Below the pieces are notes generated by a model. That model made no database searches. It saw only the letters and a program-made list of their open reading frames with translations, and was not told the DNA's origin. The position numbers and the translations under genes were made by a program. Below are positions 9,838-50,700 of a stretch of 64,000 bases of DNA, in pieces (the first letter of the stretch is position 1; each line of letters begins with the position of its first letter). Origin of the DNA: Amoebophrya sp. A120 (Eukaryota > Protista > Dinoflagellata); the NCBI GenBank assembly GCA_905178155.1, contig CAJINV010000003.1, forward strand, positions 3,317,600 to 3,381,599. Direction: 5' to 3'.

Positions 9838-9902
9838 TTGTCCCTTCTAAGAAGGGACAAGGCACAAATAGGTGAAAGAATCTTTCACCTATTTGTGCCT
9901 TG
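9838..9902. repeat. Two overlapping perfect palindromes
   Basis: ttgtcccttct-a-agaagggacaa (9838-9860, 11-bp arms) overlaps caaggcacaaataggtgaaaga-a-tctttcacctatttgtgccttg (9858-9902, 22-bp arms). Confidence 0.9.
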
Positions 9903-29537: not shown

Positions 29538-30492
29538 TTTTCTTCACGACAAATATTCACTAGTTGTACACGCAAGAACGAAAAGTAGAACAAGGCTCGA
29601 CGTAGTTCCAAGCCCGATTGGGCTCAATTATGTTTATGTCGTGAAACAAAAATAACAATGTATGAATCCTGGCATTCACAATATGGATTCAATACTCTCT
29701 GGCAGTTGGAACTATCGCTGTGGCAATGTGAGGTAAGAAAGACATCAGGGTAAAGAAGATTTTGTGACAGTGACACCACATTGCTGCGTGACAGTGACGC
29801 TGCAGTGAGTAATATGGAACTTCTTACGTGAGGCGGTTTTGCAAAAGGGAAAAGGTGCGATCCTTTGCAAGCCTAAGCCATCGGGGTGATGGGTCGATCG
29901 TATTCGTAATCGTTCGAGTTCGAAAATAAACCAAGATCGTTCTGCGCCGCATGATGCGGCTGCCTCAGGTCAGATCTCCAGCGAGATCTTTGCCATTACG
30001 CCCACAATTTCCATTTGACGTCTGCGAATATTCCCCATTTGCAGCAGGTCATTGCTTGGGCATGATGGCAGAACAAAGAGCGGGGCCTCATTGCTGGACG
30101 GCACTGCAAATGAAATAGGTATTTGAATTCGGTCGAGTATTTCATCATCGCATTCCTGATATTAGAGATGATGAAGTCTTTGCATTTTATCAGACATCAG
30201 AAAAGTTGTAGTACGAAAGAATCAGTTGCGTTTTGCAGACAACAGATTGCAAATATCAACATTTGAGAAAAACTAGCGTCCTTTACATTTTTCAAACAAC
30301 AGAAAAGTATAGTGGTTTCAGCTTCATTTCCATTTGGTACACTTGCAAGATCTACTGCATCTCTTTCAAAATCTTTGATGCGTAAAATGCTTCTGCTCTT
30401 CATTTTTCACGTCTTCGCTAGATTTGATGAATTGGGCCGGGTTCATTAGCTACGGTCGCTACTGCTACCCGTTTCATCACGCCGTCTGTTGT

Positions 30493-33400
30493 TCAGACGA
30501 TGTGGATTTTGGATGCGAGTTGCTGCAGTTCCCATGCGGTCGGTCCAAGCACCTGTTCTCGTAGCAGTCCCCGCAACTGCTTGACGACCCAGCCATCCAG
30601 CGGAAACTGGTGTGTTCCCATCATTTCCGCGCTCAGCTTCGTGATTTCGAACCAGTCGAGCAGGTGGATTTTGCGGTCTTTGATACTAGTTCGCGACTCT
30701 CCACTGCCATCTTCCTTTTGCTGGTAGTCCAGCGCGTTACCGGCCAGCACAAACTCCCAGCTCGCTTCGACGCTCACGCCCGCGAAGTGTTTAAAGAGCG
30801 TCAGGTCGTCGCAGCGGGCTTGCAATTTGAAGGCCAGATGCGGTACGTACTGTGTGTCGATTTTCCGACTCCCGATGGACTGCTGCACGTCCGGGTCAAT
30901 GGCGTCTTCGAACTCGGCGCTATCGGCCGACGTCACGCTCGTAGTGTTCAGGGGATCTGCCTCGAGCAACGCAGTGCGTGCCCGCCGCACGCCCCTGGCC
31001 AGGCGGGTAGAACCAAAGAGAGTTTGTTCATCGTCCTCCGCCTGGAGCAGGTGGTCTCGGTTCTTCACCCCGGCAGCAGCAGTTGACATCATATTTTGCC
31101 CCGCCCCGGTCACCCCATGACCATAGTTGCGTCCGCCGGCGACGCCCGGCCGGGCGCCGCTCGCCTTGTCGCCGTATCCGTTGCCAAAAGCCAACACCAT
31201 CTCGTGTGCGTGCGTCCAGTAGCAGGCGAGATCTAGCTCTTTCAGCAGCAGATTGGTCACTTCTAAAAACCCGGCGACGAATATGACAGTGCACAACCTC
31301 CCCTCCCCCTCATTTGTAGTGCATGAACAGCAATCGAAACACCGGCACACGTGGAGCCAGTGCATGACAAGTTCACTCGCCGTCTGTAGTACTGCTTGGG
31401 CTTCCGGTATTTGTCATGCTTAACAGACTGCGCAACTCAAGCCCGGGGGGGGTGCGGGATTGTGGATTTTGCATGACAAATGAGGGGGAGGGGGAGTTGT
31501 GCACTGTCATAACGAACTGGGGAAAGCCGATCTCGATCGTCATCTTTCGGTTCGTCTTTTCTTTCTTTCCACTGGTTGCTGTGTCTACCTCTAGAACTTG
31601 CAGCTTCATGGGCGGAAGCTTCTCGCGGCAGTCCACGCCTAGAGTGCACTCGTTGCTTTGCAGGGGCCAGTCGCGCAGGTTCCAGGCTACCAGGTGTTCT
31701 TCTTCTACTTGTTCCACCTGTTGGAGATTCGCGTCGTTGTCAGCGACGTGTCTTCTATCCGCCTGGTAAGCGGACGTGAGATCGTCGTCAAAGTGCTCGC
31801 CCTCGTCATCTCCTTCGCTTGACGTTCCACCACGACCCGGTGCGGACATCTTCAAGAGGGCAGCAGCTGTCGTGGCGGCGCCACCGGCCGTTTTCAGCTC
31901 TTTCAGTTTCAAAGTTCTGGCCCGCTCGGCCTCGGCCAGCACGTTCTCGACGGCTTTCTGCTTGCGCTCGTACACCGTCTCGAGCTCGTTCAACGCCGTT
32001 TGCTTCGTCGGCAGCCAGTCGCGCAATTTCGCGCCCCACCGGAGCTCTTTGGTCTGCGGAATTTGTTGCAGGATTATGGAGTGCAGCCCGTTTTTCACAT
32101 TCTCCTTGTAGGCCCCGAGAATCTGTCTGCGGATGCTGGACACCGCGTTTACCACCGCGAGCGACCCGCGCAGGCCCACGTCAAACTCAGAACTGACCGC
32201 TACGTCCGGAAGATGTTGAGGACCACGGGTCGTGCTATGGCCGGAAGTTGCAGCTCCGTGGTGCAAAGCGCGTCCCCTGTGGTCCGCGCTGTGGTGACGC
32301 CTCTTTGCCTTCGAAGCGGTCAGTCCCGCGGTGCAGCAGCCGGATGTTGCACTGCCTCTAGTAGTCGTAGTACTGGGTCTATTCATCGCGGGCGGCAGGC
32401 CCCTGGCGAGGTCCCGTCGTTCTTGCTGTCGAGTGATTCGCTCATCGATGTCAATATCCTCGTCAGCGCCGTGATCTGCAAATTTAGAAATACCAGCCGC
32501 CCCAGCAGGCTTTATTTGCTCCTTCTTCGGGCCGACGACTTTGAGTTTCCAAAACAGATCCACAACGGCGGGCGGCAAACCGCCAACGAGGTTGCATTGG
32601 AGGCCGGCAAAAAGTTCCATCGAGAAGAATTCGTCGTAGTCTGCACTCGCTGCGTAACTGTTGAAGACCACGTTGCGCTGGTTTTTGAAGAAGCAGTCCG
32701 CTTCCCCGAGCGGGATCTTGAACTTGAGACGCACGTCGGAAGAGAGGTGGTCGACGAGCCGGGAGAACGCGTGGCCGAGGATGCGGGTGCGAAGCGGCAC
32801 CTTGTAGTCGTCGATGCCCAGCTGAAAGTGCATCTCCGGGTCGCATATGGATTGCAAAAGTGTCTGGGTCGGAAAGCTTCTAAACTTGTAATGCTGACGC
32901 TAAATTCTAAAAAAATTTGTATTGCATGACCAGCAAGAGGACTCCAGTTTGTGCTACGCGGAGAGGGCATTTCTCATGCGGTAGAGGAGTCACAAAGTCC
33001 TCTCAAAGTATGTGACGCTAGAGCATGCATCACAGACATCATGGGTCATTCAAAATATGCATGACAAACCTGGCAATCTTCCAGACCCAGACATTTTTGC
33101 AGTTGATATCGCACCACTTCAGCAAGACGCGCCCGTCGTGGCCGGCTGCGTACGGCGAGTCGCGGTCAATAATCTCCGGCGTCGCGGCGAGCAGCTCCGA
33201 CGCGTCGGCCTGCTGGTGGTATTTTTCGTGGTCGTGGCTGTTGCGGTACTTTTCGCGCTCCTCGCCCGTGAGCATCTGTGCCGTTTTGTGAAACGGGTAC
33301 GCGATCGCGCGGAAGGGAAACGCCAATACCTTCTTGAGAATTTTTCGCCTCCGCTATGACAGTGCACAACTCCCCCTCCCCCTTATTTGTATAGCATGAA

Positions 33401-34952
33401 CGGCAATACAAGCATCAGCAAGAATGCCGATTTTGCATGACAAATTTACACTGGTGTGGAGTGCTATTTTGACTACCAGAAGTTGTCATGTTGGGAAACT
33501 AAGGGCAGGGCGTCCCTGTGTAAATAGCCTAAAACGGTAACCTCATACCCAGCAAACTCTAGCAGAAATCGACTTGGGCAAAGCGATCACTACCGAGAGA
33601 CAACAGCAAAGAGCTCCTGGGACGGCTGCAGGGTGAGCTTTTGTCGTTATCTAAGTAGGGATAACTTTGTCATGCAAACATTGCCAAGAGGCACAGCTTG
33701 AATTTGGGATTATGCATTACAAATCGAAATGAGGGGGAGGGGGAGTTGTGCACTCTCATATCCGCCCCGCGACCTTTTTTGGGGCAAGCACCCCGGGAGC
33801 GGGTTTGGCCAACCTGCCCAGCGTGTCTTCGTGAAAGGCCTCCCACGCGCCGCGGCGCAGCGCCTGGTAATACGAGCTGGTGTACAGAGCGCGGTCATCG
33901 CCAACCAGTAAGCACTGTTTGTGCTCCGACCCGGCACTGGCCCCCTTACTTCTCGGAGACCTGTTCGCATTGGTCGGAGGGAGCGGTGGTGGCGACGCTC
34001 CTGCCATCAACGTTGGCGAGGTACTTCTACCGTCGGTGCTGGCGTGCAGAAGTTGGTGCTGTTTCATTTGCTGAGGGTCCAGGGAAGTCAGGACGTGCCC
34101 GGGGCGCGCAGAGTGCAGAAACTCACTTGCGTGCGGCAACGGCGGACGCCCAGGCTGCTGTGACATCAGGGCACCATCCAGACTTAGGGACCGGACGTGC
34201 GTTGCACGAGGAGAGTTCTCGACCCGCAGAGTTGGCCGGGGGTCGGAGTCCCGCCGCCGGCGGGGCGTGCGGTCGGCGTCGTGGCCCGCCCCTGGACCGG
34301 CGCTGTTGGTCGTGCCCCCAGGCCCACTCGTTGTGGGGGCGGCGGTCGTCGGCACCAGCCAGCTTTCGGGAGCCGCCGAGCTGGATCCGCCACTGAAAAG
34401 ACCGATGTGCAGCACCTTCAGCAGGGCGTCCTCGCGATACCACCGGGCGATCTTTTTCTGCACGTCCTCGAGCGGTCGGCCCATGCCCTGGGTCGTGAGC
34501 CAGTCGTCGCGCTCACTGCATTTGGCTTCCCAGGTGCTCCGCGTTACCGCTTGCTTGGCCACGGGGTTTAGGATGTCGCCCAGGGGAAACGATTTCCCGT
34601 TGTGCTTGTTGCGGCTGAGCAGGTGAAAAACCGAGGCCAAGTCTACCAGGACGTCGGGCGTTTCTCCCGGGGGCTGCGGGCCGTTTTGGTTCGTGTTGCA
34701 CGTCAAACCTCCCAGACCTAACGAATGCATACCGGAGTCGGTCATGATGTGCATCCGTCTCCCTTCTGCAACGCGCGCATTGATGGTTGCAAGCAGCAGC
34801 AAGAAGTAGGCACCGGCGCTGACAATGATCCCGATGCGCCGCCCACACGATCCAACTTCGAAATTTTTGTGCGCTCGTTGGCTGAGGACCTTGCGCTTGC
34901 CGGTGGTACACGAGCGACTCTTTGTGGTGTAACGACATGATGGCGCGCCCAT
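30493..34952 (-). CDS. Hypothetical ~1180-aa protein with N-terminal hydrophobic segment, split by three introners
   Basis: Four ORF blocks (34952-33761, 33349-33109, 32840-31512, 31276-30493) join in frame after introner removal: VAGR-RRKILKK, LKWC-DPEMH, PQFV-AGFLEV. No canonical introns seen. Confidence 0.7.
31282..31511. mobile_element. Introner/MITE family A (230 bp)
   Basis: TSD acgaa. TIR tatgacagtgcacaacctcccctccccctcatttgt ... acaaatgagggggagggggagttgtgcactgtcata. Interior alignable to the 18118 and 41986 copies. Confidence 0.93.
32846..33108. mobile_element. Introner/MITE family B (263 bp)
   Basis: TSD tcgca. TIR tatggattgcaaaagtgtctgggtcggaa ... ttccagacccagacatttttgcagttgata. 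Confidence 0.92.
33355..33760. mobile_element. Introner/MITE family A, long variant (406 bp)
   Basis: TSD tccgc. TIR tatgacagtgcacaactccccctccccct ... agggggagggggagttgtgcactctcata. Interior differs from the other family A copies. Confidence 0.92.
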
Positions 34953-35774
34953 TGTTCTATTTTCCGAAGAACGCGGATCTCCAAGAACTCTCTCCGTGCT
35001 GCCCTAACTCCGGGGCTTGTGCGACCTCTGGGTCCACCAACGGACTTTGAAAGTCTATAAACATGTGTAAGGAAAACAGACGCAGGTTGTGTTCGGTTCG
35101 TGTTGCACAACGACGCAAAATAAGTCCAAAGCTAAACAAGACCGGAAGCGAAGGGGACGTTCCCATGGCGCCTCAAATAAACCAAAAGCAAGAAAAAAAT
35201 ATCAAGCCCGAATTGAAATGGTGCGAATGACGTCGAACGCAAATAACATGAACCAGGAGAAGGGTGCCACAAGCCCATGAAGGACGACGACCGGCAAACG
35301 GGCCAGGCACGTTCGGATCCACATCCGAAGGTACCAAATAAAAATGGTGTCAATGTATCGTAGAAGACAACTCTTTGGTACAAATTGTATACGGGCTACT
35401 TCTTAAGTTTTTCTTACGCTTGAATCAGATCTCTCGAAGGAGATCGTAATTCAGATGCCGACAACGTTGGAATCGAATCGATTCCTTCTTTGTACAATTA
35501 TTGGATGTCGAAGATGCAGCATCAAATATCGTACACATACAACTTTTCCAAACAAACGCACCAAATACATACTGATTCATTGATACCATCATAAACTAAT
35601 TTTGACATAGTCTCAATTTTAGGTACAAGATTCTTCAACTTCCGGTTGTAGAACTTCCAATAGCAATTGCAATACATTTCCTGCTCAATAATGGTAAATA
35701 TATAAGTACAACTTTCTTGTTCGTAGTCACTGTCACGCTAGAGCGTGGTCCTTTGATCATTTCGGCGTGGTCTT

Positions 35775-37331
35775 CTACCATCGAAACCCAGCTGCGCCGT
35801 TGTTTTCGCCGTGGTCTGCAGGGAAGAGGAGGTGGAGAAAGGAGTATGCTGCCAGCAAGGAGAGAAGCAGGACGCTGCCATTTTGCATTGCAAATCCACT
35901 TCTTGGCACGGAGTCGTTGCACATCACGTCACAGCCTTGTCCTTCGTCGAGCTGTGCTTTTTCGCCGAGGCAGTAGTATCACACAGAAAAAAGCTGGCAG
36001 GGCATATTTGTAATGCAAAAATAAACACACACAACAATTCGTCATGGGTGGCCCCATAGCATGCTGTTTCCGCTATGCAATACAGGTTTTTTCGTGTATT
36101 TATTTTTGCATTACAAATGCGCCCTGCCAGCTTTTTTCTGTGTGATAAGTAGTCCCGCCATTGAACCTCGTGGCACGTCGTGAAGGAGTCTTTTGCGCAA
36201 TAGGCCTTGCCTGTTTTTTTTTCGGAGTTGTAGAGATACACGTATACGAACGTATTTAGTTGCTGGTGTCAACATCCCCTGCTCTGACAAAATGGAAACG
36301 GAAATACCGTGTCGGCATTCAGTAGAAATACAACTAGGATTAAGACTCTTATCCAAAACAAGGAAAATATCAGTACATTTCAATGCGTCGCATTTCTTGA
36401 GGATCTCTGTGATGCCCATCTGCACCGCAGCAATGAGGCGTACGCGATAGTCGGCGGCCGCTCGCTGAAGCCGCCATCTGCCTTTGCCGTACATCGCGCA
36501 GCCGTAAATGCACTCGTAAAATTCGCGGCAATCGTACAGCAAGGGGTGGTTCCACATGGCATCGGTCTCCGCTTGGCGCTGGCAAAACTCATCGAACTGG
36601 AACCTGATATAGATGTGATGTAGATGCTTCGCTTTCAATTCTGGTGTCTTTATTTGTGTGTCGTGTGTGGAGGCACCTTCAGCTTTATCTTGCTATTCCT
36701 GTTCTTGTTTTTGACAGGAATAGGTAGAGGTCGTACTATCATTGACCACGACGAGTTCGCCTTCGCGATAAATTTAAATAATCGTCCGCGGGTTCTTAAA
36801 CTATCAGGGAGATTGATTCCCAATAAGAAAGTCACTTATAATGTTTTGTAGATGTACTACTGGAGATACTATATACCACTGTGGCGCTATCTGCTGGTTG
36901 ATGTTGTTGCAGCTGGTAAAGCACATGCGCTCGTGGTCTCCGCCTTCCGCAGCGCCATCGCAGTAGTAAACGCGTTCGAGCTCTCGGAGCTGGTTGTCCA
37001 AGTTTGGGCTGACTGCGGTGATGGGCGTCTTGAAATCGAATTGCGTATACGGGGAGACCATTGCATGATTTGCAGGCGACGAGGACTGCTCTGCAGCTCC
37101 ATCCGAATGCTCTACCTCCTCACTTTCGGTTTGCTTGGCGTAGGCGTTTACGGTGTTATGGGCTACATTGTCGACTCTCCCTTCGAGGGGTTTTGTCAAA
37201 GAAGGAGCCGCAGTAAGCGCTTCAACATGCACCTGTTCATCGTGCGGCTGTCCTTTTGCGCAGGGAAGAAGGAAGTAAGGCACGATGGGTGGGAAACAGG
37301 TCGTGGCAACGAGCCGTCGCATCTTCATCAT
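35775..37331 (-). CDS. Cys-rich putative secreted/GPI-anchored surface protein, paralog A
   Basis: Exons 37331-36877, 36603-36377, 36210-36148, 35971-35775 (two GT-AG introns and one introner). Signal-like N-terminus; CFTSCN..PQWFQFDEFC..DCREFYECIYGC..KCDALKCKAYCAK..CHEVQWRDYCLG..GCDVMCN; hydrophobic tail. Confidence 0.75.
35977..36147. mobile_element. Introner/MITE (171 bp) with ~50-bp near-perfect TIR
   Basis: TSD agtag. Left end tatcacacagaaaaaagctggcagggcatatttgtaatgcaaaaataaa is mirrored at the right end. Removal gives QWRDY-CLGEK. Confidence 0.94.
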
Positions 37332-38423
37332 ACTCGTTCTTCACAGGACGAGTTGGCAATCAATCAGCATACATCATCTTCGTCCACCGGCAACAGGTTC
37401 TCGTGCCTCCTTTCCGTGCGCTGCATTGATGACTTCAAGAACCGTAGTAATGACGCTGCGGTTTTAGAGTCGTGGTCGGACGGGAAATGACATGCAAGAG
37501 GCCGTTCTTCCCCTTCCGAAAGACTAACCCTTCCGATAATTATGCGCATGCACGACAAAAATGAAAATCACACATTAAGCGCATGCTGCATTCTACAGTA
37601 CAAACTATTTTTACCCTGATCAACAACAGCACCTCACGAAAAAACTTTTACTGCTATCACACACGGAACGACCAGGACGAAGAACCCTGGCGATTACATC
37701 ATTTTCGGCTTGGCGGAAGTAGCTATGGTATTGATAATCATAATCTTCTTACATCGGGTTTGATATAGTAGGTCTAGGTGTGGCAGATCCGCACGAATGT
37801 TACAGCATCCAACCAGGACCTAGTATCAACGACGAGACGGAGAAGATCAGACGGGCACTCTTGCTGCGCCGGTGATAGTAACGATCACGACCACGACCCT
37901 GAAATAAGAACGATGATGTGGAAATAATGGTTCGATGACGATTGGGCGTCTTCTTTCATTTCCTAGTACTTATCTATTGTGTTGCCTACTTACGAAGCTG
38001 CAAGTCGAAAAGAAGTACTTAGCCTTAACACGACATGCACTGAAAAGCCTAGGCGTGAAACGGTGCGTGTCCCAACAAACTACACTGACGAGATCCAACG
38101 ATTTTCAATTCATTCGCATCACTTTGCGTGTTGTGCTGCAATGTTCATACATTATCATCTCATCAACATGTTCATACAGTTATACTCCAAAAGTTTGAGA
38201 GAAGCTCAACCTTGATTTGTTTCAATTTTTTTACAAAGAACGGACGCAAGACTTATGGTACATACGAGTACAATGTGGATTTGAAGTTCTCTAGGTACAG
38301 CCGTTTTCCGTCTTTTGTTGACGGAGGCGAGGTGCTATTTGTCCTTCCCTTTACCAAAAAATCCACTTCAATCTTCCCGGAAAGACAATGTCAATAATTA
38401 CTCCAGCATCGCCGTCGCCGCGT

Positions 38424-39819
38424 TCAGTACAGAAAGAGCGTGAGGCACGTCATGAAGACCGCGACCGCCATGGCGACGGAACTAACTGTCTTGCTAGCAA
38501 TCGCGGAGTTGCAGTCCACTTCGCACTGGCCGCCAAACTTGAGATATCCGGGTCGATTCTTCAGGCCGATGCACTCGTGGTAGAATTGCTGCTCGCGGCA
38601 TCCGGCAAAGATTTTTCGCGCGCAGTAGCTTCGGCACTTCATCGCGTCACACCGCTCATTCTCCCGCAGAAAGGAAATCTGCGCCTTCGAGATCATCTCT
38701 CGCCGCCGCCATTTCCTGTTTTGCAGATAAGACGCAGGTCCATTTGAATTTGTCTTTTTTCATCACAAAAACCCCGACAATCATCAACAGTGATAGTGAT
38801 CCATGTAAGTAGTACTTAGATCTATTCAAAGGAACTACATTTCTTGATGAAAGCATGAACAGAAGTGATACTCCGCATCGAGCATCTTATCGCCATCACC
38901 CCCGTGGACCTCGCACCCAAAGACGCATCCGTAGAAGTCGGGGCACTGAGAGAACCACAGCGAATCCTCGGCGTACTGAATGCAGGCTTGCTCCCACCGA
39001 TACCACTGTGGGACGGCGATTTCTCCAATGACGTTGCACGAGTCCAGACAAAATTTCCGGTACAACGAAGGAAATCGCATATCGACACACATGCTGTTTT
39101 TGTTTTTGTATGATCAAAACATTGAAATAAAATCTAAGGCTCGCACGACGGACTACTTACAGTACTCCTACTTCTTAGATGAATCAACCACACGTTTTCG
39201 TTTTCTTACGATGTAAAAAAATGTGCACTTCTCAAAAACAAAAGCCGCTTAGTATCAAAAAAAAAAACCTCTGGTATCCCAAATTGATCATATCGCGGTT
39301 AAAAACATCCATCGTCGTCGTGGCAGTGACGGTGCTGAACTGCAGCTCTCGGGGCGTGTCAACTCCATGCGCCACTTGGGAGGTCTCTGTGATTGTTGTA
39401 CCCGCGTCGAAAATGTTGTCCGCCTGGTGTTTATTTCCGGGCGTGGCGGCGAGGGGAGCCTTTTCTTCTCCTTTCGGAACTAGAACTTCGTGAAGCACCA
39501 GGTTCGTCCGGGTAGTACTCCGGTCCGCCTGCAGACTTGTTGTGCTAGCCGAAAGCCCGGCGGCGCTACTATACAGGAGCTCTCGTTCTTCGTCTTGATG
39601 TTGTAAATGCAGGGGGTAGAGGTCCGATGAGGTGGAAGCTGTCAACGGAATACGAGCGACGTCTTCACCCTCTCCTGCTGCGTGCGCGACAGGAGCGAGG
39701 CACATGACCATAATATGGAGCTGCACGGCCGCGTAGCTGAGAAAGAGGAGTGCGGAGCGATGATGGAAAACCACACTGCTGCTGAGACGAGTCATGGCGA
39801 AGACAGTGGTCCACCTCAT
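38424..39819 (-). CDS. Cys-rich putative secreted/GPI-anchored surface protein, paralog B
   Basis: Exons 39819-39269, 39093-38872, 38715-38424 (GT-AG). CLDSCN..PQWYRWEQAC..QCPDFYGCVFGC..RCDAMKCRSYCAR..CREQQFYHECIG..QCEVDCNSA plus hydrophobic C-terminus. Confidence 0.75.
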
Positions 39820-40842
39820 CAAGCCTACCGCTGCGGTGCGTCTCAAGCTCCTGTCGTTTTATTCTGGAATGCTCTCTACTACACGGACGTGAAAACTGTT
39901 CAGACGGGAAACGACAAAGCAACTTCGTGGTGTCGGCCACATCCTGCACGACCGTTGACTCCTTTGGTGGACGGTTTCTGGGTGCAACAGAAGATGACCA
40001 GCAATGATGACTTGGACTTCGACTTATCTTTATTATTTTTCCCCGGTTGCGATGTGCCATAGCAATACAATGTGGTCAAAAAAAAACGATCTTGACACAC
40101 AAAATGATATAGATTCAAACACGTTCGTTAATCGCACACTTTGCCGGTGGGCATAGATACTTACCAAATTAAGTTTTACCAAATGCCAAGACTACACTTT
40201 TCCTCATACAACAAGCACGATGCTTTATTAGATACTCCCAAAACGACCGATAATTGTTGTGCTACGTGCGAGATCGAAGGGGAGGACCACAATCACGATT
40301 GCAGAGAAACGAAATCCACCCACGAGTACGAAAAGGCGCGACGATGACCGAGGACAATTCACGAAGCCGAAGGGGATGAGCTTTTGCTTTTCGAGATCAT
40401 ATCGTTAGGTTGTTTGCGTTTCTTCAACATAAATATTTGCATTTCTGTTTTCTTGCACTTGGGAATGCGACTGAAATGTGCCGGCATTGATCACATGAAC
40501 CGATTTGTCAACAATCATGGTACTCTGCATTTCTTTACTTCAACGAGAGCGATATCCATGGTTAATCTTCGGGGTGCACTGAATTGGAGTGTGCGCGGCG
40601 GAATTTGGGTTAATCCTACAGCAAAGAAGAGTTTCTTTCACAAGGGCGAGACATTGCATGCATTCTTGACTCGATCTCAATCGGAAAAAGAAGAATTTGA
40701 CTTCATGTAAAGAAGAATTTGAATTTCAACAGTTGCGCAGGGGAAAGGCGTGCTGACCACTTTGAAGATTCGACGCTAGAGACGCATGAACAAGGGCGTC
40801 CGCATGCATGGGCGCACCGGCAGCACGCATGGGCGTCTACAA

Positions 40843-43329
40843 CTATGTCGGTGGTGGGTCTAAAACCTTGAGCGCTTGCAAGACCATGACTACAGCGCCA
40901 ACACCGTTCAAGGCGCCCATCAGCAACAGAACCACCACGGGCCAGCGGAAGTCCCCCGCGAAAAAGGCGGGCTGGTATTCAAGAAAAAAAGATTGTAGGT
41001 GTAACTTTCTTGGAGGATTAGCATGACAAATATCTCTCGCATGACAGCAAAGCCCTGTTATGGGCAGATAGTATGCGAAAACGCCCTTGAATGGATCCTA
41101 CAATGCAGGCGCAGCATGAAAGGCGCAATCAATTTGCATGTAGTTGCGCATCACATTCACAAATTTACAATAACAACTTCGTTTTTTTCTTGGATAGCAG
41201 GAGAAACATCATCAGTGTTCCGATCGCCGCGGACGTGAGTCCTATCACCTGGGAGGGGTTTTTTACCAAACAGGCCACTGTGGCCGCGGCTACCGTGTAC
41301 AAAATCGCGGATAGTAAGCGGGCCACCGCGAAGTCATGCAGTTTCTTGCGGGGGCGCTCAATGAAGCTCTGCACGCGCTCCAGGCTGGCAACATCGTCTT
41401 CGTTCCCGCGGCTTCCATTACCACCTCGGTCGCGTATCCTGTCGCCCACTGCCAAAAAGGCTCGAAGCGTCGGGTTCAAATTGATCGGAAGCGCAAACTG
41501 TGCGGTATAGTTTTATCAATTGACGACCACCGTGCTGCTACAACTACACTAAATCTGATTTTGACAATGACCGAGTGACACAAAAATCCTCGCGGACGCG
41601 ACCAAGCTGAGAACAACTATACTCATGCAATATAAAAAATGAAGTCTGAGTAAAGCAAACTGCTACAACTGTTTTAGTACTCAAATTTGTCAAGAAAACT
41701 GCTAGAAAACGACCTGTTTCTGTCATTTGTACCAAGAGAGTGACCGCCAATGCGAAGCGGCTGATTATTGCTGCTGGATCGTCAGAGTCATAATTCTTCA
41801 GAATGTCTGACGCCGTCCCTTCGCCAAAGCTGAGGTAGCCGCACACGGCAATGCCGAGGTAGAAAAATATCTGCACGAACGTGGCGGTGTAGGTCACCTT
41901 CGTGATCCGCTGGGAGGTTGGCACTTCCATCTCGGCGGCAACCGGACACACGTTCAGGTGACAGTTGTACGCGAAAACGAAGTTCTATGACAAAGCACCA
42001 CAACTACCCCGCCCCCTCATTTGTAATATTGCATGAACAGCAATACAAACACCAGCACACGTGGAGCCTATGCATGAGAAACTTATGTCCCTATTGTAGT
42101 ACTGTTTGGGCTTCCGGAATTGGTCATGCAAACAGTGCTACACGGCAGCGACTGGATTATGGGGTTGGCATGACAAATGAGGGAGAGGGCCAGTTGTGCA
42201 CTTTCATAAGTTCCCCAGAGCGATGAAAAAGTTCCAATCCAGCCGTACTACGAGGAGCTCATCTTGCAGTTTATTTTTTCATCAGACGACATTTGATTTA
42301 TGTTTTCTTCAGCAGCAAACCAGCATGAGTACGCCATCATCCGTAGTACGTACTAAGCGATGTTGACGCGGAAGTTCATTTCGACAGAACGTATACCGTT
42401 ACAAGGAAGCGCAAAGACAATTTATGTATCGAGACAACAGGTTCTTGGTCTTGCACCAAGTTACAACTGATGGAGCCTACCAGTACTACACACCAAGTGC
42501 TGAAAGGTCTTCAGAAGTTGTACCAAGTATTTGCTGCGTCACTTGTCCCGGTGTGCGTGCTATGATAAGCGCGGAGGTGTAGGCCAGACTCACGGCGCCG
42601 ATTACGCTGCAGTACTTTAGCGCGCTCAGGTTTTTTGGCACGGACAGTGGAATGACAAAAACGAGGATGCCGTAGATAATTACGGCTCGGTCGTGCAGCG
42701 CGGGTATGGTGGGCAGGAAGATTCCGGCGAGTGAGGACATGAAGTCGCCGACAAAGTTGAAATAGGCTACCTGTACGCCGAAGCCGTAAATGGCGAGCAA
42801 GCAGTCGAAGGCCCCACCGCATCCGGCGATTTTCTTCCCGACCAACTCCCCGTACTCCATGCTCCCCGTTTCTGCGGTCTTGAGCATTAGCACCTTGACA
42901 ATAAATGCGGACATCATCAGAATGCATAGCCCTACTCACTGTTTAATACATAGTAGGCACTACACGGTGTATCTGCAGATGCAGGGGTGGCACTACGATG
43001 AATAAAGTCAAAGGAAGTAAGTACTTAACACTAAGACTGTTCAATTATACCTGTATACTGTAGGCGGCAGCGAGCCCGCCAAGTATCAGCAGGAAGGCTC
43101 CAAGGCCCATGCCGGTAAGGCGCATGGCGTAGGGTAGCGTCAGCAACCCACCACCGATCGCTGTGGAGGTGAGCGCCAACACGGACTGCCGTACACCTCC
43201 GGAACGCAGCGGTCGCCCAAAATTGTGTCGGAAGAAATTCGGTCTACGCACCTCCGAATAGGCGAATCCTTGCGCTGCGACAATCGGAGAGACGTCTTCC
43301 ATTTGTGTTGCTGCGGCGGTGGTCGTCAT
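40843..43329 (-). CDS. Amino acid/auxin permease (AAAP, SLC38-like) transporter
   Basis: STAIGGGLLTLPYA, YFNFVGDF, IPLSVPKNLSALKYCS, FVFAYNCHLNVCP, GYLSFG, ILKNY, MFLLPAFF. Three GT-AG introns and two introners. Confidence 0.9.
40976..41196. mobile_element. Introner/MITE (221 bp) in AAAP gene
   Basis: Imperfect TSD gctgg/gcagg. TIR tattcaagaaaaaaa ... tttttttcttggata. Removal gives LMMFLL-PAFFAG. Confidence 0.85.
41986..42208. mobile_element. Introner/MITE family A (223 bp) in AAAP gene
   Basis: TSD agttc; family A TIR and interior. Removal gives IALGN-FVFAYNCH. Confidence 0.93.
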
Positions 43330-44778
43330 GGTTTTGGTCTTGCAGTGAACAAGTTGCTTTTTGTGGTATAAATCTCAATTTCAATCTTTGAAATCAGTCG
43401 ACTGGTCGTGGTGGAAGGACGATCCGCTTGAAGGTTACGATTTGTCGTGCGGTAGGTTGTCCAGCAGTCCAACAGCCTCACCGACGATCCAATGTCTAAG
43501 TGGAAGTGGATTTATTTTTTCGCGTTATAATACTGCGCCGCAGTGCCAGTGGTCGGACACGGTCTTACATAGGTCTCCAGAGGTGGACGAGAAGGCCGTG
43601 GAAGACGAGGAGCAGGACGGCACAAAAGTGAAAGGAGCGGGCAATGTTGACGCAAGAACAGATACTGGAAGTGACGATACGAGGGTCATGATCTTGTGAA
43701 TTGCGAACAACAAAAAACCAAATGAGCCTGTGTTCAGCAACAACGCAACGGGCACGACTGTTCTTTATCTTCGGATTAAGATTATACTCAAAATAACAAA
43801 CTAGTACCTGAGGAACGCAGGAAGGAGGATGATCGAGCAATCAACGGAGTTAACAAGAAAGATCGGCTCCACGTTCCATATCGTTCAAGGGGCTGCATGC
43901 ACTTGCACATGACACCACATCCATAAGTAGAAGCGTAATATTGAGAATGCTACTTGTCCAACAATGTCGACAATCGATTAATATGTTGAAATTGTTCATG
44001 GGTAGTACGGGGGCTCACGAACATGCAGATGCATTTTGTGCCACACAAAACTGTGGAATCTGACGACAAGACGCCAACTTATCTTACCGCGGATGCGCAA
44101 CTTCGGTGAGAACCCAAGGGAACACTCCGATGAAAATTCAGACTTTCTTCCAACATCCCCAAAGGGATTGAGTCCTTCGATACAACACGATCATTTTCTT
44201 AGAACCCTGCTGGTAGTATCGAGCTGATGATCTTTTCATGGAATTCTTGTCATCATTTCGAAAACTTGATGGGGCTTGTTGTCCTTGTGTTTCTACAAAC
44301 TCATACATCGATGAGATGTGATGAAAATCTCAAATTTGACGCCCAATAAAATACAGAAAAAAATCAAATGTATGCGTCGCGGCATCTTCAAAATCAAATT
44401 CAAAACAAAACTAAAATGGGCCACCATCACCATCGATCATCAATTTACTTTTCGCAGCAATTGCTCCTGTGTTCATTCCTTGTCCTTGTCGCGATATTAA
44501 AGCAGAAGAAGAATAAAAGGCGTTGATACGGAAAAGAAAAAAAAGCAGGTCACGGTCCATGTACAAAAATCTAGGCCTCTAGTCATGCCACGATTTGAAA
44601 TCGGATTGGCGCGGCATTAAAACATGAAGTTTGGGAGGAGGCTCGTCATCTTCTAGACCCACTATTGTTCGCACTGAGGTATGCAAGAAAAGGGCTCTGT
44701 ACGTTATTCATTTGAATAAGCTTGATAAGGGCGGCTGCACAGAGTAAACAGCGAACTGAGTCCGTAGGTTGCGGTACG

Positions 44779-47700
44779 CTATTGGTATGCCAGACTGTCC
44801 TGCTTGCTGTTGCTGCTACTCTGCCCTACAAACGAGTTGGAAGCAGTTGTCGTTGTTCTTTCCTCCTCCCAATGGTAAGAACGATCCTTGCCGCGGCCTT
44901 TCCCGCCTTGTCGTTTGGTGTAGTTACCATTGTTGTAGCTGCTTCCGCCCCCACCGCTTCCCCGCTCATTATTGTTCCAGTTGCTTCCGCCATTGTGTGT
45001 ACCGCGCGCACCGGTCGATGCCCACTGTAGAGTAAATTCTCATTCGATTGAATCATGCATCACGAGCACGACCTGTTGCTGGCTAGAACGCAGCAGAAGC
45101 GAAACAGGGTTGATAATGTCCACCGGCATCACAGCGCGGTTGACTTATTGAGCTTGGGACTGTTTTACTTATATCACATACACAATTCAGTATAATTCTT
45201 CGCACAAGAGGAAGAAGAATGGCGATTACCTCATCCCGGCCCGCCATTCTGCGCTCTTCACGGGCCGCGCGCCTTTCTTCGCGGTTCCCATCTTTCCCAT
45301 TCCCTGCTTCGGAGCCATACCTGCGAAAGATTCTCTATCTTCCCATTGATGTTTTTCCTAACACTGGGCGCAGCCAGATTCGCTATTTCTTAGCTTGCAG
45401 ACAGAGACACCAGGCACGGACTCTTGAATTAAAGCTGCGGAGTACAAGAAGAAAAAGTATAGCACAGGTATAAATTCTACCACTGCTACCCAATTTATTG
45501 CTTTGTACCTGCTGTGGTTCGGTGAGGGTCGCTTCCCACCGAAGTTGTCTCCACCTTTGCTTGAGCTGCCGCCCGTGTTTGGCAGACTGGGTGGGGGCAG
45601 TATGTTGCTGTCGGCCTTGTAGGAAGATCCGTCGCCGAAGTTCGAGGAGGTACTGCTGCTCCCGCCATGGTTGTAATCACCGGTCTTCTGCGAGGCCGTG
45701 CTAAAGCTCGACGATGGCGGTAGGCGTGCGCTGTTGGGCGGTGGACTGCCGGTGAGCTGCGAGGATATTGAGTCCATAGGCAAATGGTCCGCCGACAGGC
45801 CGCCGCCAAGGCTGCTGTTGTATTGCGAGGACCCGGACGCAGGTCCTCCCACTCCGCCGCCACGGTTGCTGTCGCGGATATTATTGCCTCCCTCCTTCGA
45901 GAAAGCCCCGAGTTTACTTGTGTTACCGGGGCCGTGGTGTGCCGCTCGTGGGGGCTGGTTATAGCCTTGTTGCTGTACATAATTGTTGTTCATCACACCG
46001 TCACCACCCATGTTTGCGCTCCGCCCATACTTGCTCCCGTCGCGCGGCTGGTCCCCTGGCATGTTGAAGCCATAGTGCTGGTTCCCGTTGTTCCGGCCGA
46101 ACTCATTCTTGTGTTCCTTGTAGTTGTTATAAGACGTCGCATTATTGTTGCTGTTGTAGTTACCGCTCCCATACCCGTTGTCGCTGTTCAACATTTTTAC
46201 ATCGGCATTCCCGGAGTTGTTTTGCATGCCTTTGTATCCTATGCAAAAAACCTCGCATAACTGCTCGTCGACATTGTAATATTACCGCACTACCGGTACT
46301 ACCAATTCGTAAACCAAACTCTCATGCGTTGCCTACTCATTCGCTGCATGCAGGACACATGCCCTTTTTGCTGCCAACATTTCTCCTCGATCAAGTAGTT
46401 GCGATTCGCTTGCATTGGATACTCTGCCATTATTTCCCCCGCCTGGGTTGTTCATCATTTGGCCTCCGTGGTTTGACGGGTTGTTCAGCAGAAACTGGGG
46501 GTGATCCCCTCCGCCATTTCGGTTCGACTGAAAGTTGTTTCTGTTGTTCGGCGGAAAGTTTGGCTCATTCTGTGGTCCTCGCGGGGGCGCATTGTTGTAG
46601 TCGCGGTCATGCTATGCATCTTCGCAAACATGTCAGGGACGGGAAAAGAGCAAACTACATTCAGGTACGCTGCGCTCACTTCGAATACCTACGATGCGTC
46701 AACAGACAGTATCCACCTCGCGGATAGTATCTGCATACTAGCGTCGTAACCTCATACGTATCAATTCCTGCCTTTCATCAAGTATAGACCCAGACATGTG
46801 TAAGTACATTACCAGTGGATACACGCAAACGCTGATGCTCGTTGTATGTCGCCGAGACACCGCCTGGAGCAGGGCCTCCATTCCCTTGATGATAGTCGCC
46901 CTTGTAGGACGCCATGTTCTGCTGGTTTCCGTAGTTCTCGTTTTTGTTGTTCCATCTTGCACCTCCACCACCGCCAAGGTGTTGCCCGGGAGGTTGAAGA
47001 TCCTGATTGTAACTGTTTCCTGCTCCGCCTCCGCCCGGCCCACCTGAGCTCCCGCCCCGGGACAGCATACCGCTGTTGTTGCCGCCGGGGTGCTGATCGT
47101 AACTGTCGTAATTCTCCGCGTGGTTGCCACCTTTGCCCGACCTCTTCATACTATTTGCAGATCCTGCGCCAGAGGACTCGGGGGGGTTCAAGGCCTGTTG
47201 CGCGCGCAGGGTGGCACGCTCGGGGTGGAAGTAGCTCCGTTCGGTTTCAAAGTCGGGCGCGTAGTACAGTTCGGCGGACGGCCCGGAGCCCCACGTGACC
47301 GGCTCGCGGTCCGTCAAAATCGCAAATCGCTCCATGCCGCCCATCACCTCGAACACACGCCCCGCGTTATCAAAAGGGAAAATCCCCCCTCCCCATATCA
47401 AAACGAAGCCTCTGATGCTGGATTTGCGTACACAAATCAGATTTGTCTTTCTAGAGAGGACTGCAGGCCTATGCTGTGCCTGAGTGGGGAGGCTCTGGGC
47501 TAGGCGCTAAGCATGGCAAACGTCTAGTCTGTAGGGCCAACAGCATCACAAACCGCTTGCAGAATGCGGCGGGGCCTGCGGAGTTGCGTTCTTGCAAGAC
47601 AGAGACGATTTGTGGTCACAAATCAGCATTGCAAATTTTCTGAGACGTGCCTTTCCGATATGGGGAGGGGGGACTTTTCCTTTTGATACGCGTCCGGTTC

Positions 47701-50700
47701 CTGCCATCCCTGCTCTTCATTCACAAACGTGACGAGTTGCAGACAGTCCTGCGGTATCAACTGTAAAAGTGTCTGGGTCTGGAAGATTGCCAGGTTTGTC
47801 ATGCAGGTTTTCTATGACTCATGAGGTCTGGAATGCAGCGCCTAGCATGACAAACTCTGTGAGATCTCTAGCATGCCTATCCTGCATGAGAAATTCCCTT
47901 TCAACTTGGTAAAAAACGACGGCTGTTGGTAATCACGCAACACAGATTGCTTGCATGATTCAGATTTAGCATGACAAGTTCCATCCTCCCAGACCCAGAC
48001 ATTTTTGCATTTGATATGCGGCCCGATGTAGAAGGACGCGCCGCCGTCGGTCGGCGGGGATTCATACCGCTCCACCGGGTAGCCCCCCTGCCGCACTATC
48101 GGATAGCCGTACCCATAAAACGATGTGGTGGAGCCGTCTGTTCATCCAGTTTCGTATATTTAATATCGTTGAAAGAAAATACAACTCAAAGGGATGAAAT
48201 ATCACTTCGTATCAAAGGAGAGAACAACAAGGAGATCATGAACATCAAACAGTAGAAGAAGCAGGTGACCACGAGTCGGTGCCTGTGGCGGCCTCGTCCA
48301 GGGTACTACAACTTCAAAATTACAAATACCTGTTTTCTCTTTATCGATGGCAGCTTTGTTGAATTCCCGGTACTTTGTTCGCTCCCAATTTGACCCGAAC
48401 TCCTGCAACACCTCGTTGCGCTTGCGCGGGTACGCGCCGCCCACAAACGAGGCTGGATTGGTGGTCATGTAGATTCGCCCGGTCCGCTCGTACTCTTCCA
48501 CCTGTTGGTCAAAGCCTTGTGGCAGGCTGGTAGGCGGGTAGTACCTGTTGTGTCGGGAAACAAATGGTGCATCTTCGTCGTGCACAGAGATGATCGCTGG
48601 TTTTCCAGATGCGGCACAACAAAAGTAAAAAACCACGGGGACCGTGTTCTCGACACAATCTACCACAAGTCGGCTATCAAAAGCTTCACGACTTCTGCCA
48701 CTTTTGGAATAGCTCCCCTCTGGAGCAAAAGCATGTAGGCAGAGACGAGGACCCTAGCTTGATAAAATCTAGATACATCGAAAAAATACAGTCGCAATTG
48801 CATGTTTCGGCGAGGTATTCACTGCAAATATGTCTCGGTCTGGAAGAATGCAAGATCTGTAGCGCTCAACTCCTGACTATACTCCCAAATTCTCATGTAC
48901 TGCGTGTTCGTGTTGCGGAATAGCGCTGTTTCTGTGTCATGTATAAAAAGGAAAAGCAGTTTAGCCAATGTGCTGCGCACCACAGGACCGCTCAAAACAA
49001 AATGTGTCAACATGATGCTTGGCTTCATGCTCATACTCTGGCCACTTTGTCAGACAACTTTCCAGACCCGCAGATATTCATTTGCAGTAGATAAGAGGGC
49101 TTTTCATGATCTCTGCTAGCTCGTCGTCTTCGTCGGCGCCAAGAATTGTGAGGAAAATTCCCCCCTCCCCATACTCATAAAAATACGATTTGTGATGCGC
49201 GGCTTGCGTACACAAATCGAGCTGTGTTGCTAGAAGGCAACGGGACGCGCTGGCGGCCTGGGTTGCTAGAAGGCTATTCGTCACGCTATTCTGGGCAAGA
49301 CAGTTAGTCTCTGTCGTGTTGAACATGGAGATGGAGCCTGGCTGCACTAGGATCCACAACATCACTTGGCATCTGAAGACGTGACAATTGGACTTGGTTG
49401 TTCGTGTACACAAATTCTCCAGCAACACCAGTCCTCGCCTTTTGAACATGCGGAGGTGGGGGGGAATTTCCCTTACGATACCAAGGTCGGGGAAACTGCT
49501 GGGTTTGGCGCCCCAGGGCACCACGAGCGCGGGCGGGGGGTTGGGGACGGGCCGCTTGGGGCAATTGATCATCGTGTTGGCGGGCATATTGTCCTTTAGG
49601 CCACGAGGATCTGACCCGGAATGAATGCCACCCGCATGCAACCTTAAGGAAAAAAAGAAGAATCATACTTACGCGTGTGCACCTCTTCCTCTTGACAATT
49701 TGAGTCAGATTTAGTTTTAGAATTGCGACGCGCGGAAAGAAATAAACAACGACACCTCGATGGTGCGCTCCTGCTTTTTCTTGTGTCCTACAATCAGTCC
49801 TCCAAGGTGGATGTTGATGACGATATTAGAGCACCGCTGGTGGTCCCTTCTTTCCTACAGAGAATGAGGAGCGTATAAAGAAATTCATTCTGCTTTTTTA
49901 AGAATATGGACTTATTGATGCACGGTACCTCTTGCCACTCTGGTCGAGAAACCCGGATTGGTTTGGGCCCTGAGTTCCGCGGTCCCCGAAAACGGAGCCT
50001 CCGCCGTTTTGCCGTGCGCCGTAATTGTAGTAGCCGTACTCTTCGTCGCGATTCTGGTTGTAGCGATCCTGACGGCTGCCACCTTTTCCATACCCGCCTT
50101 TTTCAAAATTTCGGCGGCCGCCTCCGCCCCCACCCTTCATGTTGTTTTCGTGATATGAGGATCCCTGACCACTACCTCGCATCATGTTGTCGGAGCCGGG
50201 TCCATAGGTACTACTCCCACCACCCGGCGGATTTCTGCCGTCGCCGTGGTGTTGGTGATCTAAGCTAGCGTATGATCCGCCACCGCCATTGCCGGCGTGA
50301 TGGTATTGTGACTCGAGGTTGCTGGTCGCGTTGTACGATCCTCCGCCACCGCCGGCGGTGTTCCCGCCGCCCTGCGGTTTTCCGGAGTTGCGTCCCTTGC
50401 CGGCGTTGCCGAACTGATTGTTTTTCCCCGAATTATTGTTGCCGCCGCCAACATGCTGCTGCTGCTGCTGCGGGGGTGGTGGTGCGCCGCTGGCGGCCCC
50501 GCTGCTCGAGGTCGAGAAAGCATTGCCACCACCTCCCATGCCGTAATGCTGCTGCTGTTGGGCATTGGCATTGCCACTACTTCCACCGCCGTATTGCTGT
50601 GGTTGGCCCGGATTACCGCCGTATGAATTGTGCTGTTGCTGCCCCCCAGGGGCGTTTTGCGCCGTATTCGCGCCCATCTGGAGCTGCGGTCCGCCCGATA

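Follow-up and report, generated by a model that had tools for sequence, protein, structure and literature searches.

Introners of Amoebophrya sp. A120 occur in both orientations relative to their genes and appear to be removed at a single register

Amoebophrya is a marine parasite of algae. In strain A120, Farhat et al. (2021, PMC7789003) described introners of about 240 nucleotides, found in blocks of co-oriented genes and lacking GT-AG ends, whose inverted repeats open with TAT, about seven variable bases and a run of A, and whose borders carry direct repeats of 3 to 5 nucleotides. According to the accessible text of that article, about 65% of the RNA-supported A120 introns are non-canonical, and both their borders and the machinery removing them were left open in 2021; the spliceosome proteins form a near-complete set, U1 snRNA was undetected, and no autonomous partner with a transposase is reported there. 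The legend of its Fig. 3 presents the position of splice sites with respect to the hairpin as variable and the border as unknown, whereas we propose one register; its text and supplement use 'orientation' of genes only, whereas the orientation of the introners is counted here. The literature that we covered (openly readable text, as distinct from subscription papers and figures) was silent on the orientation and the register of Amoebophrya introners, and what appears to be new here is a proposed single register together with the lack of an orientation bias.

The introners of Polarella glacialis and Aureococcus anophagefferens, in the accessible account (10.1101/2020.10.14.339549), are likewise transposons with terminal inverted repeats (TIRs) and target site duplications (TSDs) that make introns on either strand, and their splice sites may straddle the boundary between element and duplication, as here. 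However, they recruit GT, GC or GA donors and AG acceptors with a bias to one orientation, whereas those of A120 show no bias and leave the target nearly unconstrained. The nonconventional introns of euglenids (PMC12501133, PMC11282704), a lineage unrelated to Amoebophrya, share non-canonical ends, paired termini that are offset from the cut sites and have the longer spacer on the 3' side, junctions with direct repeats and a likely MITE origin, and circular products have been reported for them. They differ in their CAG/CTG motif, in spacers of 3 and 5-6 nucleotides and in having exons that start with a purine, whereas A120 has TAT/ATA and proposed spacers of 1 and 4 nucleotides; the A120 ends, N-TAT...ATA-N4, thus depart from the euglenid signature N3-CDG...CH'G-N5-6. 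In Fritillaria borealis (PMC11282704, PMC13326754), introns that are also MITE-derived and non-canonical are removed by a changed U2 spliceosome; the ends preferred there are AG-AC and AG-AT, with a preferred exonic target, whereas only positions +2 to +4 seem to be fixed in A120.

The window analysed here is a stretch of 64,000 nucleotides (64 kb), an exon of which is 100% identical to an A120 protein and 55% identical to that of strain A25. Two introners, A and B, are considered with their host genes:

32846-33108, minus strand: element A, family-1 introner of 263 bp with TAT...ATA inverted ends; duplication TGCGA in host sense.
32842-33109, minus strand: proposed intron of A, ends AT...CG; X1 skip from 32840 to 33109.
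30496-35003, minus strand: gene that hosts A, without a Pfam match; stop-to-stop frame of 1198 codons once three elements are removed.
31282-31511, minus strand: family-2 introner within the gene that hosts A; X1 skip.
33355-33760, minus strand: family-2 introner within the gene that hosts A; removal deduced solely from the reading frame.
47755-48016, minus strand: element B, family-1 introner, opposite to A relative to transcription; duplication CCGCA.
47751-48017, minus strand: proposed intron of B, ends AT...GC; skips in X1 and X2.
44900-52800 (approximate limits), minus strand: host gene of B, encoding a Q/G/N-rich low-complexity protein; one transcript has GT-AG introns together with seven TAT-type elements.

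A and B are members of the published TAT...ATA introners of A120 (Farhat et al. 2021, PMC7789003). Both start with TAT and end with ATA, their inverted repeats continue with about seven variable bases and a run of A, and they lie between 5-bp repeats, TCGCA for A and TGCGG for B. They belong to a repeated family (123 relatives among the matches listed), and X1 and X2 transcript contigs skip them at non-GT-AG ends. Like MITEs, the elements are short, with TIRs, a target duplication of fixed length and many dispersed copies; the duplication was perfect in 257 of 307 candidates from a scan that required 5-bp repeats and tolerated up to two mismatches. The elements are probably non-autonomous DNA transposons with short inverted repeats and a 5-bp duplication, inserted into exons both ways. 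A transposase search confined to the 64-kb window found none, and Rfam gave no match within it. A and B both carry stops in all three host frames, and the sequence of neither offers a canonical register.

A preliminary description of the window had placed A and B in one family in opposite orientations, on minus-strand hosts, with precise removal of both. The pairwise alignment that it proposed bears out the first point, with exact coordinates: the reverse complement of A matches B in 190 of 264 columns. With 60 nucleotides trimmed off each end, the interiors align in reverse (z = 12.7) and not forward (z = 1.4); with 80 trimmed, the values are 8.9 and -0.8 (300 shuffles each). Orientation is thus set by the interiors and not by the inverted ends, since the trimmed alignment is significant only in reverse.

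Transcript contigs skip each copy together with one 5-bp duplication, namely 268 nucleotides at A (X1) and 267 at B (X1 and X2), which confirms precise removal. These junctions come from assembled contigs and not from reads, X1 and X2 represent one sample, and their RNA nature is presumed by the tool, consistent with the absence of their GT-AG introns. The raw RNA runs X8-X10 gave 22, 1 and 2 partial reads on the stretch. Both hosts were indeed found on the minus strand. For B, the contig that skips the element also skips introns readable as GT-AG on minus only. The contig across A shows no GT-AG intron, and here the call comes from the length of the reading frame once A and its two neighbours are removed (1198 codons for minus, 469 for plus) and from the coding model (29.5 for minus, 6.2 for plus).

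The orientation count per family, also proposed beforehand, was run on at least 151 fetched loci of one assembly (JACKZZ01 contigs, a near-identical strain; 80 with long flanks) retrieved with a single family-1 end pattern. We saw no orientation bias: among the matches listed, the junction coding model gave a host-strand call for 52 of 123 copies, and these divide 26:26 relative to host strand. Of 23 pairs within the same matches that share at least 90% identity, 14 are oppositely oriented, and neighbours on one locus, for which a strand call is unnecessary, are 14 same and 12 opposite (n = 26). We considered A-like and B-like lineages each locked to one orientation. Two subfamilies did look skewed at a stricter threshold (1:8 and 11:2), but with more calls among the matches listed they came to 9:15 and 17:12, and a tree of the listed copies has 20 changes of orientation label against 22.7 when shuffled; the counts and the tree rule such lineages out. 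Locus-level and junction calls agree in 81 of 83 cases among the matches listed. The copy closest to B in that set, L025_2307 (253 of 262 positions), is likely in B's orientation, its locus-level call being wrong at a convergent gene pair; the locus-level tally of 32:33 and the tree labels therefore contain at least one error, and we rely on 26:26. Pfam, with 3 of 19 ORFs matched, backs the called strand at L015 and L030 only. Seven other families likewise occur in both orientations, and two-way excision is seen not only between A and B but within a single transcript:

47368-47688, minus strand: family-3 introner, X1 skip; orientation opposite to 49144-49480 in the same transcript.
49144-49480, minus strand: family-3 introner whose host-3' end is ATT instead of ATA; skip still exact.

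From orientation independence the preliminary description had argued for recognition of a hairpin or of symmetric ends rather than of strand-asymmetric spliceosomal signals. Symmetric ends do explain two-way removal, but this makes no case against the spliceosome, because inverted repeats put identical end sequence on either strand and because introners that are canonical in either orientation are reported in the accessible text on Polarella glacialis and Aureococcus (10.1101/2020.10.14.339549). Introns in both orientations are a trait that A120 shares with these two species. Taken alone, the orientation point is modest, since these elements had been described as a class and introners that work both ways were known elsewhere. 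Moreover, the ends are symmetric but the cut is not: it appears to fall 1 nucleotide before the 5' stem and 4 after the 3' stem, in the direction of the transcript. Excision tracks the direction of transcription, not that of the element.

This register was derived from imperfect duplications, where the number k of upstream repeat bases kept can be bounded:

46235-46421, minus strand: introner, repeat mismatch at position 3; upstream base retained in transcript.
46613-46821, minus strand: degenerate introner, repeat mismatch at position 3; upstream base retained in transcript.
40976-41196, minus strand: introner hosted by a membrane-protein gene, repeat copies differing at position 3; upstream residue in database protein P0130; orientation opposite to 21757-21963.
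48816-49093, minus strand: degenerate introner, arms resembling family 1, repeat copies differing at position 5; downstream base retained in transcript.
51916-52111, minus strand: degenerate introner, arms resembling family 1, repeat copies differing at position 5; downstream base retained in X2 contig.

The host of 40976-41196 is presumably a transporter gene. At least three bases are kept at 46235 and 46613 (X1 contig) and at 40976 (P0130; six homologs have a hydrophobic residue there or are not aligned), and at least four at locus L032, where a Rab5-type Ala stands in the A120 protein and in 91 of 99 homologs, and at L035 (A120 protein only). At most four are kept at 48816 (X1 and X2; the short side of this contig junction is 25 nucleotides) and at 51916 (X2). 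Assuming one rule, all seven imperfect duplications fit a single cut, 1 nucleotide before the 5' TAT and 4 after the 3' ATA; the basis is these seven sites, and the lower bound of k = 4 comes from two cases, both at the protein level and from a strain that differs slightly, of which one is weak. The resulting intron would begin N-U-A-U, resembling the GUAY donors of the genome (GTA in 8 of 9 canonical donors, GTAY in 7 of 9), and its last bases would be arbitrary.

Canonical signals are rare at these borders. Among the matches listed, 111 elements have a strand call; 11 of them offer GT/GC-AG in at least one register and 6 do so at k = 4, 100 have no canonical pair in any register, an AG acceptor at k = 4 occurs in 15, and G is not enriched at +1 (37 against 36.1 expected). 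The elements thus lack U2-type GT/GC-AG ends, matching the donor solely at +2 U and +3 A, as well as the GT/GC/GA donor and AG acceptor of the Polarella/Aureococcus type (the pairs counted jointly being GT/GC-AG). An arm-pair search without a TAT requirement returned TAT at both ends in 140 of 151 of the matches listed, a figure biased by the search pattern; the exceptions were too rare for comparing host ends. No palindromic target preference appeared among the matches listed (30 and 27 of 111 against about 28 and 27), nor did canonical signals rise with arm decay in the loci listed. Repeat position 3, the -2 site, is mildly enriched in A among the matches listed, with 46 where 33.4 were expected (z 2.7, in one cell out of 20); at position-3 mismatches the downstream copy has A in 3 of 3 cases in the 64-kb stretch and in 1 of 5 in the loci listed. 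Under k = 4, phases divide 56:28:27 over the 111 listed elements, an excess of phase 0 that we leave out as evidence because target preference could yield it. In Table S4 of Farhat et al. (PMC7789003), the predominant non-canonical ends start N-T in 9 of 9 cases in A120 and T-T in 9 of 9 in A25, but these ends hinge on the aligner's placement of ambiguous junctions, and CT-AC among them may reflect strand error.

With modest confidence, we favour a relaxed U2-type spliceosome as the agent that removes the elements from pre-mRNA, recognising their ends and not GT-AG. The mirror-image ends likely offer the splicing machinery identical fixed cut points either way without GT-AG. A transposase acting in trans would insert the element either way round, duplicating 5 bp. 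Both arms begin with TAT, so that either orientation gives a transcript of the form TSD-UAU...AUA-TSD with the same predicted stem. Cuts 1 nucleotide before UAU and 4 after AUA would then remove one duplication's worth of sequence and restore the original mRNA. The N-U-A-U donor would retain +2 U and +3 A of GUAY with +1 free, and the acceptor would be fixed by its distance from the element end, since its final bases are whatever the target site held. Catalysis by U2/U6/U5 through a lariat might follow, the stem substituting for U1 and U2AF. Such a spliceosome would have to dispense with both terminal G's, given the rarity of GT/GC-AG and the unenriched +1 G; the standard spliceosome is not known to do so.

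We put forward more tentatively a splicing code without any fixed terminal nucleotide, in which a U1-less spliceosome would accept any N-U-A-U donor and an acceptor four bases past the paired end of the transposon, making insertions exact introns from birth, in either direction and at almost any site. If true, the many non-canonical splice sites of A120 would collapse into that one rule, and a single register would give sharp predictions for branch-point location, key bases and genome re-annotation. The wide spread of the elements would also be explained, because splicing would filter neither direction nor target site.

The main alternative, although less likely, is a separate, non-spliceosomal system in which a structure-guided endonuclease and ligase would use the terminal stem as their point of measurement; such a system has been proposed for the nonconventional introns of Euglena. 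In its favour, both terminal dinucleotides vary, the offset stem with its short 5' and longer 3' overhang recalls N3-CDG...CH'G-N5-6 in the accessible euglenid literature (PMC12501133), U1 snRNA went undetected in the text of PMC7789003, and element 49144 is cut exactly without its terminal A. The terminal stem was predicted in 4 of 4 folds (z -3.4, -4.2, -0.4 and -3.35). However, a strand-specific test gives no sign of selection for RNA pairing: among the matches listed, arm mismatches on the transcribed strand of 140 elements show no G-U excess (100 G-U against 113 A-C, and 395 against 372 in the interior as a control). The cut is in a compatible register even where the arms are poor, as in 46613 (overall z -0.4) and in 51916 (arms that differ by indels), and +2 U is retained in both strains from different arm positions, which would be needless for a purely structural enzyme.

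A hairpin between direct repeats is a known setting for reverse-transcriptase jump artefacts. That the skips are such jumps, over elements left unspliced in the cell, fits this setting and the origin of all junctions in one sample's assembled contigs, and a jump would also retain the downstream base at position-5 mismatches. We consider it very improbable: the elements carry stops and long frames arise only upon their removal, bins within 48816 and 49144 have no X1/X2 contig cover while contigs join across them, identity falls to 2 nucleotides in the position-3 cases, and conserved residues cross the junctions in Rab5 and other proteins. Excision from DNA by a transposase at some life stage, like that of ciliate internal eliminated sequences, would suit the transposon anatomy and the absent strand bias, orientation being irrelevant to it, but is hardly credible, given that a 42x contig of run X5 is unspliced over 48823 to 53000, across three elements and with no B joint, that element-free contigs also lack the GT-AG introns, and that the register is polarised by transcript direction.

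The window holds further elements:

18118-18335, minus strand: family-2 introner in a HYDIN/CFAP65-like gene; removal deduced from a coding model partly trained on that gene.
21757-21963, minus strand: introner; host strand call weak.
27604-27758, minus strand: introner in a CwfJ-domain gene, missing from annotated A120 protein P0001.
35977-36147, minus strand: introner with near-perfect long arms; X1 skip.
41986-42208, minus strand: family-2 introner, missing from database protein P0130.

The end pattern used for the family search also matched two viral contigs (L152, L153).

Two introners of one family, family-1 (hereafter the A/B family), have the same terminal bases:

Element A: 32846-33108, host gene on the minus strand, 263 bp, TAT start, ATA end, between perfect 5-bp repeats
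Element B: 47755-48016, host gene on the minus strand, 262 bp, TAT start, ATA end, between perfect 5-bp repeats

In a pairwise alignment of B with the reverse complement of A, 190 of 264 columns match. The opposite orientation of the two copies, proposed in the preliminary description, is borne out by their interiors: with the arms (terminal inverted repeats) trimmed by 60 nt at each end, the A-B alignment exceeds shuffled sequences in reverse (z 12.7) and not forward (z 1.4). A scan for TAT...ATA ends, paired arms and a 5-bp repeat found 12 elements in the window, named here by their start coordinates; applied to five simulated windows, it returned five elements with at least 12 matched bases and none with at least 15. 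Four degenerate elements (46235, 46613, 49144 and 51916) were added from RNA joints and inspection. A single transcript skips both members of a second opposite-orientation pair, 47368 and 49144. The four window copies of family-2 (18118, 31282, 33355 and 41986) all share one orientation, which could reflect either chance or local hopping; at the metagenome loci described below, this family stands at 2:3.

At both elements, RNA-type contigs of run X1 skip the element together with one repeat copy: 268 nt in the case of A, 267 nt in that of B. The skip at B recurs in contigs of X2, a run of the same sample. These joints are among the 15 of 26 listed for X1 and 15 of 23 listed for X2 that we examined; a skip of 33355 is not among the 15 of X1. 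The RNA-type runs may have the same origin as the annotated proteins and do not count as separate evidence. The B contig also skips introns reading GT-AG on the minus strand, which fixes the host strand of B and marks the contig as cDNA-like. For A, removal of A, 31282 and 33355 leaves a frame of 1198 codons on the minus strand, against 469 on the plus strand, so that both hosts lie on minus, as originally described. Since every other removal length in that phase would open this frame too, the length removed at A is fixed by the contig and not by the frame. A coding model trained in part on the window gives minus-strand signal in 15 of its 16 four-kb chunks and none in the remaining one, and one exon of the window matches an annotated Amoebophrya sp. 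A120 protein at 100% identity. In a further run, X5, a 42x contig is unspliced across 48823-53000, and no B joint was found. That elements in both orientations are removed at the RNA level together with one repeat copy can be held with high confidence. Run X8 contributes raw RNA reads that match B over just 50 nt (window 47929-47981), at 90-95% and between different flanks; they may stem from a related element of another strain.

How general is this two-way arrangement? At least 151 introner loci were fetched with one end pattern from a single metagenome assembly (JACKZZ01 contigs), which represents A120 or a close strain, since its Rab5-type gene fully matches the A120 protein and a second gene does so nearly. 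They contain 305 TAT...ATA elements, 123 of them of the A/B family. The count of orientation against host strand per family, suggested earlier as a check, gave 26 A-like and 26 B-like copies among the 52 of 123 callable with a junction coding model (71 uncalled), and 14:13 and 8:8 at stricter thresholds; these host strands are inferred rather than RNA-derived, and one locus-level call was wrong. Neighbouring A/B-family copies, compared with no strand call, are the same in 14 cases and opposite in 12. Pairs with at least 90% identity, one of them aligned at 95%, are opposite in 14 of 23 cases. The larger clusters stand at 33:29, 4:4, 7:5, 6:6, 7:6, 2:3, 2:1 and 2:1. Two A/B subfamilies are skewed at a stricter threshold (1:8 and 11:2), more mildly with more calls (9:15 and 17:12).

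When the 5-bp repeats are perfect, six registers yield identical mRNA, and it is the imperfect repeats that reveal which copy is kept. We denote by k the number of upstream repeat bases remaining in the exon. The seven sites below are all the mismatched sites with transcript or protein evidence; at least 19 further mismatched sites at the metagenome loci lie outside this set.

Sites with imperfect repeats and the values of k that they allow
46235: repeats differ at position 3, X1 retains the upstream base, k at least 3
46613: repeats differ at position 3, X1 retains the upstream base, k at least 3
40976: repeats differ at position 3, P0130 (database protein matching its membrane-protein host gene) retains the upstream base, k at least 3
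48816: repeats differ at position 5, X1 and X2 retain the downstream base, k at most 4
51916: repeats differ at position 5, X2 retains the downstream base, k at most 4
L032 (metagenome locus): repeats differ at position 4, the protein requires the upstream base (Ala rather than Asp, as in the A120 protein and also in 91 of 99 homologs), k at least 4
L035 (metagenome locus): repeats differ at position 4, the upstream base is required on the evidence of the A120 protein only, k at least 4

Only k = 4 is compatible with all seven, in which case the intron reads N-TAT...ATA-NNNN; a single register at this value is probable. In Table S4 of Farhat et al. 2021 (PMC7789003), each of the nine most frequent non-canonical ends given for A120 starts N-T, and each of the nine given for A25, whose arms start TTA, starts T-T. 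The table agrees with an N-TAT register, subject to aligner placement and possible strand errors. Several family-1 ends (L003, L063, L066 and L145) have TAC instead of TAT with the repeat intact; that of L063 would make a GTAC donor, resembling canonical donors.

Both arms start with TAT, so a transcript sees the same ends in either orientation, and orientation blindness needs nothing more. The part of the preliminary description that invoked symmetric ends therefore stands, but its case against the spliceosome does not follow: introners of Polarella and Aureococcus also occur in either orientation, although theirs have canonical sites and a bias towards one orientation (bioRxiv 10.1101/2020.10.14.339549).

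The inferred cut is polarised, falling 1 nt before the element and 4 nt after it. The resulting donor, N-U-A-U, resembles the canonical donors of the A120 genome (GTA in 8 of 9, GTAY in 7 of 9). The +2 U is common to U2- and U12-type donors and is contacted by U6. Among 111 elements, the +1 base is unconstrained (G 37, A 33, C 25, T 16) and the acceptor almost so (AG in 15). A GUAY-like donor, a free +1 and a near-free acceptor favour a relaxed spliceosome, and we lean towards one that would take N-U-A-U as donor while the element's end positions the acceptor by distance. A non-spliceosomal removal system like that of Euglena is the main rival, though less likely: the Euglena code likewise has an offset stem and a longer 3' spacer (PMC12501133). 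Pairing may or may not matter: all four folds predict a terminal stem and 49144 is cut exactly despite its missing terminal A, but among arm mismatches on the transcribed strand G-U shows no excess over A-C (100 vs 113), and poorly paired elements are still cut. It is very improbable that the skips are template-switch artefacts, and we give equally little credence to excision of the elements from DNA.

The element class itself is already published. Farhat et al. 2021 (PMC7789003) report for A120 inverted repeats starting with TAT, 3-5 nt direct repeats, 1954 introner families and 65% non-canonical introns, and did not detect U1 snRNA; the accessible text and supplement give no border position and apply 'orientation' to genes only. 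The method of Gozashti et al. 2022 (PMC9860276) provides for opposite-orientation copies. The two-way orientation is confirmed here, and the proposed border rule for A120 introners is new and testable: in the freely accessible texts searched, PMC12130899, PMC11453091 and PMC12787238 included, we found neither an unbiased two-way family without canonical ends nor a fixed A120 register.

The motif TGTCATGC (at most one mismatch, either strand) is present in 285 of 287 elements across unrelated families, counted over the window and the fetched loci with 33 elements excluded that have family-1 arms but no family call. Its density is 15-19 per kb in elements against 0.65 per kb outside, frequently 25-45 nt from the element end. 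Its role may be that of a transposase site common to the families or of a signal for splicing; we found no mention of it in the accessible text of PMC7789003.

Elsewhere in the window, a GC-rich stretch of 1.5 kb between two genes (11047-12546) has 37-nt inverted arms (81%) with ends unlike those of the TAT elements. At 59200-61850, about 2.6 kb of GC-rich sequence with tandem repeats (59503-59729 and 60844-61262) is flanked by exons of a gene that we take from its sequence to be kinase-like, and is possibly a large insertion within an intron. Directly upstream of the CLUAP1 gene, the two arms of a perfect 22-bp inverted repeat (9858-9902) are separated by a loop of 1 nt. Finally, the gene at 26961-29543 encodes a CwfJ-domain protein, presumably of the CWF19-like, splicing-related family, and itself carries an introner.
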